Assembly: GCA_963514005.1 (NCBI GenBank)
Contig: OY740823.1
Span: 1,674,001 to 1,738,000 of the forward strand
Direction of reading: 5' to 3'
DNA: 64,000 bases
Origin: Raja brachyura
Lineage: Eukaryota
The translations under genes were made by a program, and so were the position numbers. Shown here piece after piece: positions 15,862 through 18,852 of this stretch (positions within the stretch are counted from its first letter, which is position 1; the number at the start of each line of letters is the position of its first letter). The notes under the pieces were generated by a model. That model did no database searches. It saw nothing but the letters and a program-made list of their open reading frames with translations, and was not told the origin of the DNA.

Positions 15862-18852
15862 CTATTCTTCTCCCTCCTCCTCCGCTCTTTGGAGTTCGGA
15901 TGAATCCAGCGCCACCTCTTGGTAGTCCTTCTCCAGCGACGCCATGTCCTCCCGCGCGTCCTGGAACTCCCCTTCCTCCAGACCCTCTCCCACGTACCAG
16001 TGGACAAAGGCTCGCTTGGCATACATCTTGTCGAACTTGAGGTCCAGGCGGGTCCAGGCCATGGCGATGGCGGTTGTGTTGCTCAGCATGCAGACGGCGC
16101 GTTGCACCTTGGCCAGGTCGCCCCCCGGCACCACAGTCGGGGGCTGGTAGTTGATGCCCACCTACGGAGGTAGGGAAAGTGCAGACATTGGATTTCAATT
16201 CCTGGACCCCCGTCAACATGCGAGCTCGTCCCAACCCATTCGCCGTGTAAACATCGTGCTTTGGGTGAACTGCAAAGCCTCTGTTGCCCGTGCGAGGGCG
16301 CTGCAAAGTGGAACGAGGCAATTAAGTGATGAACCCAATTATTTACTTCCTCCCCTATCAGAAACTCAATGTTTCCTGGAGTATTCTTACTGACCGATCA
16401 CCCGGCAGAAAGAGGAATTTCGCCCCACCGTCTCCAAGCACATGAATTCCTTCAAATCCACCAACGCCCCTCCATCCCTTTTGCCATCATCAGCACAGGA
16501 TGCCTCCTGCAAATGTTCGGATCGGTGGGAACATTGCCATGGGATGATTATGTTGCGTTGGGGTATTGAGTAGGGAGGGCACAGTAGGGAGCGAGGGAGA
16601 GGTCCATGTTCAATTATTGTCGATTAATACAGGGACGTCTGTTTAACATTTCTAGCTATGCCGTTCCCCTAATGTGTCGGACATTATGTGTCGATCATAG
16701 CCCATCCCCTCCTCCATCGGGCACACACGGTTTTGGCTCAAACTCTTAACTTACCTTGAACCCGGTCGGACACCAGTCCACGAACTGGATGCTGCGCTTG
16801 CTCTTGATGGTGGCGATGGCGGCGTTGACGTCCTTGGGCACCACGTCCCCGCGGTACAGCATGCAGCACGCCATGTACTTGCCCTGGCGGGGGTCGCATT
16901 TCACCATCTGGTTGGCCGGCTCGAAACAGGCGTTGGTGATTTCCGCGACAGACAATTGCTCGTGGTAAGCCTTCTCGGCCGAAATCAGGGGCGCGTAGGT
17001 GGCAAGCGGGAAATGGATACGCGGGTAGGGGACCAAGTTCGTTTGGAACTCAGTCAGGTCCACGTTGAGGGCGCCGTCGAAGCGCAGCGAGGCGGTGATG
17101 GACGACACGATCTGCGCCAACAGACGGTTAAGGTTGGTGTAGGTGGGGCGCTCGATGTCCAGATTCCGCCGACACACGTCGTAAATGGCCTCGTTGTCCA
17201 CCATGAAGGCGCAGTCGGAGTGCTCCAATGTGCAGTGCGTGACCAGCACAGAGTTATAGGGCTCCACCACGGCGGTGGAGATCTGCGGCGCCGGGTAGAT
17301 GGCAAACTCCAGCTTGGATTTCTTGCCGTAGTCGACGGAGAGTCTCTCCATGAGGAGGGAGGTGAAGCCAGAGCCGGTGCCGCCGCCGAAACTGTGGAAG
17401 ATGAGGAACCCCTGCAGTCCGGTGCACTGGTCGGCCTGGGGGAAGGAAATCGGAAAGCATGAATAGAATACCGAATGTGACATCGCTGATGTTCGTTGCC
17501 CGAGTATTCGGCAAGCTGAGTACTGGGCGCATGAAGATTCGGCTGTCAGTTCGAAATCACTTTCGAAATTTGGAAAGTTATTCGGCCTCCGATGTGGTAC
17601 AGCAAGGGACGCCTACCTGAAATTAGTGTTGACGTGTGAATAATGTAAATTAACCTTGGAAAGGCGGTATTTTAGGTACTGTGTGCAGTTCTGGTTGCTC
17701 CACTACAGGAAAGATAGGAAGGTAAGAGTTTAGAAGAATGTAACCGGAAATCAACCGGGATTGGAGGAATTTAGCCCCACGTAGAGATGGGGAAATTTGG
17801 ATTGTTTCCTTTCCGCTACGTCGGAGGGTGAGAGGACACCATATGCGAGGTGTATTGATCTGGTAGATTGCTCACGCGGAACAAATGAGAAGGTGGACTG
17901 GGCGTAGCTTTTATTGAACAGTAGGAGAAGTTCCCATATTGTGCTTGTGACAGAAACACATTCCCGGGAGTGCGGTAGTTATAGAGAAATTCTGGGAAAC
18001 GTTATCGCAAGTTCACCTACCACCTTCCGGATGCGATCCAGCACAAGGTCCACGATCTCCTTTCCGACCGAGCAGTGTCCCCGGGCGTAGTTATTAGCCG
18101 CGTCCTCCTTGCCGGTGATGAGCTGCTCGGGGTGGAAGAGCTGCCGGTAGGTACCGGTCCGCACCTCGTCTATAGGGGAGGGGAGCAGAGAACGGAGAAT
18201 TAACCAGCGTCAGACACCCCCATCCCGGCACGATGGGGTTTTGAAGCAAACCCGGCCAAATGATCGCCCGCCATTCCAAATTACCGATCACCGTGGGCTC
18301 CAAATCGACAAAGACAGCCCGCGGGACGTGCTTGCCCGCCCCCGTCTCGTTGAAGAAGGTGTTGAAGGAATCGTCGCCGGCTCCGATGGTCTTGTCGCTG
18401 GGCATCTGGCCATCCGGCTGGATCCCGTGCTCCAGGCAATAGAGCTCCCAGCAAGCGTTGCCGATCTGGCACCCGGCCTGGCCGACGTGAACTGAAATAC
18501 ATTCGCGCTGGAGATGGAAGAAACACGGGATTAGTACCAGATGTGGATAAATCGGTTTGAGAGATGGAGGAAGTGGGTTGGTGCTTAAAGTCAACCGATT
18601 GCTGTCGGGCGCATACCATCCATTCCCTCCTTACGCTCCTTCCTACCCTAAAAATAAAACCTCCACCACCCAGAGCTGTCCTAATAAAACCACCCGATCT
18701 GTGTGCACGTCCCTGTATTAACCGGGCCTCCCGGCACAGCTAGCTTTTCTCTGATTGGTGCACGCCACCCACAGAGGGATCCCGTTCACCAATCAGCCGT
18801 ATGTCTCCATGGAACACGGTGGTCCTCAGAGTTCTAACACGTAACCCACCAT
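15862..18852 (-). CDS. tuba: Alpha-tubulin, intact five-exon gene (copy B), 451 aa, ending ...[14 protein letters not shown]
   Basis: Exons 18850-18852 (ATG), 18285-18507 (223 bp), 18021-18169 (149 bp), 16755-17435 (681 bp), 15862-16161 (300 bp with TAG). All introns GT-AG. Exon sizes match vertebrate five-exon TUBA3/TUBA8-type genes. MREC start, K40 and GGGTGSG are retained. Confidence 0.96.

Follow-up and report, generated by a model that had tools for sequence, protein, structure and literature searches.

Few protein surfaces in animals are as conserved as the outer face that helices H11 and H12 form on α-tubulin, and the locus at positions 15862 to 18852 raises the question of how an α-tubulin gene (gene A) in which this face has been rewritten is to be understood: whether it is a decaying duplicate or an isotype in its own right and, in the latter case, in which cells and with which partners such an isotype would act. 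The window analyzed here, i.e., the whole stretch of 64,000 nucleotides from Raja brachyura, is part of a 13.3-Mb contig (C47) in a 2.7-Gb genome.

Gene A is an intact α-tubulin gene at 18852-15862 on the minus strand, coding for 451 amino acids without an internal stop, with coding exons of 3, 223, 149, 681 and 300 nt and GT-AG at every junction. Its product matches Pfam PF00091 and PF03953, contains the GGGTGSG and MREC motifs, has α-chains as its best PDB matches and is 92% identical to the product of the genome's own TUBA1-like gene over residues 1-436. A second intact copy (gene B) and several broken ones share the window:

18850..18852, minus strand: gene A coding exon 1, the ATG only, followed by a GT donor
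18285..18507, minus strand: gene A exon 2, codons 2-76, with C14 and K40
18021..18169, minus strand: gene A exon 3, codons 76-125, with C108 and S109
16755..17435, minus strand: gene A exon 4, codons 126-352, with GGGTGSG, V188, V190, C193, L275, Q309 and M317
15862..16161, minus strand: gene A exon 5, codons 353-451 and the stop, with the remodeled H11-H12 and a tail that ends in Glu without Tyr
50689..53856, plus strand: gene B, 449 aa, exons 50689-50691, 51104-51326, 51439-51587, 52272-52952 and 53563-53856
1..1318, minus strand: broken copy running past the left edge of the window, seen as split tblastn matches in several frames
29853..31214, minus strand: broken copy, 5' part, exons 2 to the start of 4, frameshifted
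33380..35881, minus strand: broken duplicate, 3' part of a gene-A-like copy, frameshifted, 84% identity over 2.1 kb
49057..49237, minus strand: lone exon 5 fragment

A preliminary description had held both genes to be intact, with thirteen changes shared by them relative to canonical TUBA1, and this was borne out: gene A splices by GT-AG into a frame without internal stops, gene B is intact as well, and V14C, Y108C, T109S, T190V, T193C, H309Q and E386M, as well as A389T, H393L, L397K, M413L, S419Q and E420D, are present in both genes in comparison with one of the genome's canonical genes, with K40, MREC and GGGTGSG kept in both, as it had also stated. The canonical residues at positions 14, 190/193/309 and 386-420 were checked in PDB chains, and Y108 in a table of human TUBA1A variants. 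Between the two paralogs the introns have strongly diverged, again as described, in that introns 2-4 are 63-69% identical, barely over the 54-58% of shuffled sequence, as against 92% identity for the coding sequence.

These two genes belong to a large array. A genome search with exon 5 gave 77 matches, 58 of them on the contigs C47, C294 and C1519, the others being nine four-exon α-tubulin genes (C7, C42), one five-exon gene (C24) and nine β-tubulin genes. Thirty-one intact array genes were assembled (25 on C47, 5 on C294 and 1 on C1519), i.e., 30 five-exon genes and one with long introns, which represent 31 distinct coding sequences and 27 distinct proteins; one further copy is frameshifted in exon 2. 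The count is a lower bound, as the stretches around the search matches on C47, rather than the whole contig, were spliced. On C47 the genes lie in both orientations at 0.33-0.36, 1.19-1.39 and 1.52-1.84 Mb, interspersed with broken copies, and all 31 have an intron after codon 352 that is absent from the four-exon TUBA1-like genes. The array flanks on C47 (200 kb examined) are repeat-rich, and a crude screen of them found no recognizable genes.

At C47:1280610-1324418, six near-identical tandem genes separated by 1-6 coding differences are accompanied by half-gene units (exon 5 with the 3' portion of exon 4) repeated every 1.9 kb, which reflect either recent unequal crossing-over or an assembly effect; given that these six copies (1.28-1.32 Mb) differ by only 1-6 bases, they could be over-counted. 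For most copies an assembly artefact can be rejected, the genes on C294 and C1519 being at least 30 coding bases from their nearest copy. A parallel expansion of β-tubulin is likewise rejected, with only nine β genes in the genome, eight of which keep a largely canonical H12. A divergent single β-tubulin on C35 near 16.876 Mb, with altered H12 and tail and about 80% identity to the other β genes over a 100-residue stretch near the C-terminus, may be considered a candidate partner of the array proteins. The long-intron array member (C47:1521794-1536755) retains T109, the ancestral residue, and clusters with a protein from a horn shark (97/66), a hint that the split of sharks and rays may be younger than some subfamilies.

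Comparison of the array with the genome's canonical genes allows the traits of the isotype as a whole to be separated from those of its subfamilies. Sixteen positions (108, 109, 188, 190, 193, 275, 309, 317, 386, 389, 393, 397, 413, 419, 420 and 427) differ from all eight assembled canonical genes in at least 30 of the 31 intact copies. Half of these diagnostic sites fall within residues 382-436, the H11-H12 region, which makes up 55 of 436 residues (hypergeometric p=2e-4) and in other tubulins is half as variable as the average (0.034 vs 0.071 overall). Among 238 tubulins outside the clade, L397 is invariant in 211/211 and M413 in 208/208 covered rows. The thirteen listed changes are array-wide with the exception of V14C, a subfamily trait found in only 11 of 31 copies. 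Beyond that list, the array has I188V, V275L/I, L317M, A427S and the loss of the C-terminal Tyr/Phe: every copy ends in Glu, in contrast to the canonical genes with Tyr (six) or Phe (two), and the tail carries one or two basic residues. C108 and C193 are present in all 31 copies, which have 14-15 cysteines each as against 12 in the TUBA1-like genes. K40 is kept in 22 copies and replaced by serine in the other nine (C47 1.20-1.39 Mb and C294), which, judging from this residue, could not be acetylated at that position.

The signature extends well beyond this genome. Among 293 proteins gathered by protein searches and cluster look-ups, 55 carry it and the remaining 238 reach no more than 2 on a 14-site score, for which the accepted residues at 386 were widened after the split was already bimodal. 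The 55 proteins come from 15 elasmobranch species, namely three skates, one sawfish and eleven sharks, including Heptranchias and Heterodontus, with the window proteins closest to skate entries. No chimaera or bony-fish member was found among the 293 proteins, which derive from a database clustered at 90% identity, with 15 of the 36 members of the main cluster listed; since gene A is itself 92% identical to a canonical protein, clustering at this level and the partial cluster membership mean that absence outside elasmobranchs is not proven. A further-derived subclade of sharks and sawfish (90/97) keeps most of the H11-H12 signature, has its K40 loop replaced by a basic one and is also rewritten around residues 278-295 (the M-loop region); no intact member of it was seen in this genome.

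In a maximum-likelihood tree of 38 rows (residues 1-437, with 5 of the 31 copies), the clade is monophyletic with 100/100 support and lies outside the rows for TUBA1, TUBA3-like, TUBA4A, TUBA8 and tuba8-like, so that the array proteins form a clade of their own rather than nesting in one of these named isotypes. The tree leaves the sister of the clade without resolution, as does a second tree, its outgroup did not root cleanly, and true mammalian TUBAL3 is absent from the fetched proteins, the row named 'alpha chain-like 3' being a canonical sequence. The clade stem measures 0.067 changes per column, the median end branch 0.019. On C24, the five-exon gene shares the extra intron, but its H11-H12 is canonical and it falls together with a C7 gene (98/92), and hence the intron is not proof of orthology. 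This C24 gene (near 15.23 Mb) is itself a divergent α-tubulin, and several C7 genes (2.84-3.10 Mb) have divergent K40 loops, including W40 and R40.

The array can be set against the known vertebrate isotypes. With TUBA1A/1B/1C (PDB 3j8x, 11yj) it shares MREC, GGGTGSG, R402 and, in 22/31 copies, K40, and its first three intron positions are common to the genome's canonical genes; it differs in the 16 diagnostic substitutions, the basic tail residues, the extra intron after codon 352 and the 31 copies, and lacks the canonical H11-H12, the C-terminal EEY and the four-exon gene of TUBA1. TUBA3 and TUBA8 both have a five-exon layout. The array proteins would likely work as germ-cell α-tubulins like TUBA3 (PDB 8iyj, 8otz, 'Tubulin alpha-3 chain'), but two TUBA3-like proteins with canonical H11-H12 form their own clade (98/89), separate from the array. 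TUBA8 and the teleost tuba8-like proteins are also divergent vertebrate α isotypes; however, TUBA8 diverges in the K40 loop, keeps a canonical H11 and has its own clade (100/100), and the array, unlike TUBA8, has a K40 loop of the PSDK/S-TIG type. TUBA4A, like the array, is encoded without a C-terminal tyrosine, but has a canonical H11-H12, sits on a separate branch (90/86) and is not amplified. The expanded α-tubulin clusters of Antarctic notothenioid fish resemble the array in their amplification by duplication and inversion, which in an unrelated lineage is an analogy only. As for gene neighborhoods, TUBA3 usually lies in the region of VAMP1, NCAPD2, SCNN1A and EMG1, and PEX26 is the usual neighbor of TUBA8. 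PEX26 is on C20, where there is no α-tubulin match, and the array is on C47; EMG1 is on a small contig (C426), MRPL51 and GAPDH had no match anywhere in the genome in the marker-family searches, and neither these searches nor the 200-kb flank placed a synteny marker on C47.

The array is under purifying selection, which gives indirect support to the view that its proteins would fold, pair with β-tubulin and enter microtubules. Across 420 of 435 pairs of 30 copies (Nei-Gojobori, dS>0.05), the median dN/dS is 0.086 and the maximum 0.145, all far below 1, and the 15 closest pairs together show 13 non-synonymous and 78 synonymous differences. The replacement residues are held across sharks and skates, with K397 in 50/51, Q419 in 50/50 and C108 in 46/47 covered rows. 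The proposal of an old, maintained and lineage-specific isotype, formerly drawn from two paralogs, thus stands on 15 species of sharks, skates and sawfish, a clade of its own and dN/dS far below 1, and what the array encodes is a genuine α-tubulin isotype of sharks and rays that is ancient, under selection and highly amplified. Its long stem, after which sharks and skates show stasis, speaks for a change of function rather than for decay. As to its history, a single α-tubulin duplicate in the shark-ray ancestor may have taken about 14-16 substitutions in a burst and then held them fixed, after which local duplication and inversion would have raised its copy number while genes were continually lost.

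The location of the changed residues offers some insight into their likely effect. PMC6371496 lists three human TUBA1A variants, H393Y, L397P and S419L, as pathogenic or likely pathogenic and labels them 'MAP_binding, superficial', changes at these residues being a cause of tubulinopathy; for positions 108, 193, 309, 413, 420 and 427 the first rows of that table are simulated or population variants. According to two further studies, VASH1 docks on α-tubulin H11 and H12 and on a patch, including Y108, of the neighboring protofilament (PMC7449697), and a simulation of the tau R2 repeat has H393, L397, S419, E420 and A427 among its contact groups (PMC10032563). From such published structures and variant tables, the changed residues appear to face binding partners; an AlphaFold2 model of a skate member (32-row alignment) reached a mean pLDDT of 35 and was discarded. 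Altered binding of motors or MAPs, as suggested in the preliminary description, is plausible on the basis of residue location. Further, as R402, E414, E415 and E417 are unchanged and E420D retains the charge, it is likely that basic motor stepping would be kept while docking of MAPs and enzymes would be altered.

For the site of action, the promoters provide the main clues. The following predicted elements, based on sequence, an alignment of 19 promoters and motif counts, are placed in gene A:

18913..19017, minus strand: proximal promoter of gene A
18913-18917, minus strand: predicted TATA box
18948-18952 and 19013-19017, minus strand: predicted CCAAT boxes
18968-18976, minus strand: predicted RFX X-box half-site
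18983-18989, minus strand: predicted Forkhead-type site

The 19 aligned promoters share a layout despite drifted flanks, in which the ATG is preceded by TATA at 56-65 nt and by CCAAT at 92-111 nt. In the 31 promoters of the frameshifted copy and 30 intact ones, TATA is found in 30 and CCAAT in all; an X-box half-site occupies a fixed slot just upstream of CCAAT in 20, and the remaining 11 constitute one subfamily, all members of which carry a CRE half-site. A full X-box, by a loosened pattern, occurs in nine of the 31, compared with at most 0.02 per promoter in shuffles, and also in the promoter of the long-intron copy. These copies are not independent and reduce to five types, of which four have the half-site and three the full X-box. 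Gene A itself has only the half-site, which shuffles yield in about one third of 260-nt stretches. Of ten non-array promoters chosen as a control, only one was located, and a full X-box is absent from it. In the promoters of motile-cilia genes, RFX motifs rank first across animals (PMC5245798; PMC7498320); RFX2 and CREM are named as regulators of mouse spermiogenesis, and Tuba1a is unchanged in Rfx2-null mouse testis (PMC4745085). A search of sequencing runs returned a single RNA run, a marine metatranscriptome at a share of 0.05, which is no evidence of expression, and six runs of unrecorded kind from three organisms with 0.36-0.72 of the gene words.

Taken at face value, these promoter words point to spermatids or motile cilia as the probable tissue, a deduction to which copy number also contributes. 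The preferred reading, to which we assign a probability of roughly 0.5, is that gene A belongs to a 31-copy, elasmobranch-wide clade with rewritten H11-H12 and no terminal Tyr, which likely provides the bulk α-tubulin of spermatid microtubules, sperm or other motile flagella. The array would supply this α-tubulin, its high copy number, in light of the promoter words, would serve dosage, and the changed H11-H12 face would shift which motors, MAPs and modifying enzymes bind. Against this, the mammalian TUBA3-like proteins in the tree keep a canonical H11-H12, from which it follows that vertebrate sperm do not need the rewritten face, and the lack of a matching β-tubulin expansion makes a simple explanation by dosage less convincing. 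The dependence among promoter copies, the lone half-site of gene A, the unchanged Tuba1a of Rfx2-null testis and the charge that E420D preserves also count against it.

It is typical of testis genes to form large ampliconic arrays, which counts against the possibility that the same isotype serves a non-germline cell rich in stable microtubules, for instance in the multiciliated epithelium of oviduct or kidney, in electroreceptor or hair cells, or in the marginal band of red cells. An X-box would additionally be ill-suited to red cells, and the CRE half-site of the X-box-less subfamily is a better match to CREM-driven spermatid expression. However, X-boxes mark ciliated cells generally and not sperm alone, the protein-level evidence is all neutral on tissue, and a genetically tyrosine-free tail suits stable microtubules (PMC12838686). 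We regard a non-germline role as rather unlikely, if worth serious attention. An altogether different function could be sought in osmolytes, given that urea inhibits tubulin assembly and TMAO relieves this inhibition: the substitutions would suit microtubule assembly to the high levels of urea and TMAO inside elasmobranch cells, with the array as a broadly expressed supply. Both the match between the clade and the elasmobranch range in protein searches and the polar-to-hydrophobic swaps E386M, H393L and T190V speak in favor of this. Nevertheless, canonical TUBA1-like genes whose H11-H12 is unchanged persist alongside the array in this genome, indicating that ordinary tubulin works in elasmobranch cells; this, together with the clustering of the changes on the partner-binding face and the largely canonical H12 of eight of the nine β genes, renders such an adaptation improbable.

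The many broken copies, the near-identical tandem units at 1.28-1.32 Mb and the repeat-rich flanks devoid of genes recognizable by the crude screen could alternatively signify a relaxed, largely dispensable duplicate, amplified at the unstable, repeat-rich end of a small chromosome, with its substitutions a product of drift; for instance, tyrosine loss could have removed the need for VASH1 docking, and the changed sites do coincide with the three VASH1 interfaces (PMC7449697). Yet the dN/dS of about 0.09, the identical replacement residues kept across sharks and skates, and a promoter layout that was conserved while introns drifted largely refute this for the whole protein, making it decidedly improbable, with relaxation on the stem branch alone being possible. 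The suggestion, also made in the preliminary description, that the gained cysteines (C14, C108 and C193) form stabilizing disulfides, and that these are the point of the isotype, draws on the invariant C108 and C193 and the raised cysteine count, but is very improbable, with C14 restricted to 11 of 31 copies and the cytoplasm being a reducing environment.

Returning to the germline and motile-flagellum reading, the sperm flagellum of elasmobranchs is helical, and two accessory columns wind around its axoneme (PMC11856307). Tying this flagellum to the isotype is speculation, and the fuller proposition that sharks and rays build helical, column-reinforced flagella from a dedicated α-tubulin, its motor- and MAP-binding face rewritten at residues whose mutation leads to brain malformation in humans, and have amplified this gene to tens of copies without β expansion, is possible at best and on the doubtful side. 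If true, it would represent a natural experiment in which H11-H12, constrained by cytoplasmic partners, could be retuned for a specialized axoneme. Independently of tissue, an isotype in which eight H11-H12 residues are rewritten and kept constant in sharks and rays, with about thirtyfold amplification, lends itself directly to testing the tubulin-isotype hypothesis, in that one would ask which residues are needed by which motors, MAPs and detyrosinating enzymes; if testis-specific, it would furnish a marker for elasmobranch sperm and a lead on their structure.

A full-text literature search, with most subscription journals and genome-paper supplements outside it, including older biochemistry of dogfish and skate tubulin, found no published description of the clade or array. 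The genes are already in RefSeq under generic names, with no description of the group found: they appear as 'tubulin alpha chain-like' models (e.g., XP_032885929.1, XP_067880357.1, XP_041037356.1) or are auto-named after unrelated isotypes (1A, 1B, 1C, 1D, 8), and many are models of 415 aa starting from Met36, which lack a portion of exon 2 together with the first coding exon of 3 nt. Recognition of the clade would flag dozens of such misnamed shark and skate gene models.

Apart from tubulins, the window has a partial single-exon frame of a rhodopsin-family GPCR inside the array (41560-42195, plus strand; PF00001, E=6e-12) and, at 2550-5700, simple tandem repeats with units of about 33-66 nt that adjoin the left-hand broken copy. 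LINE-type reverse-transcriptase remnants are abundant (7250-13500, 24000-29200, 37700-38900 and 55000-60000), among them an RVT_1 match at 12611-13510 and an 833-codon open frame at 26678-29179.
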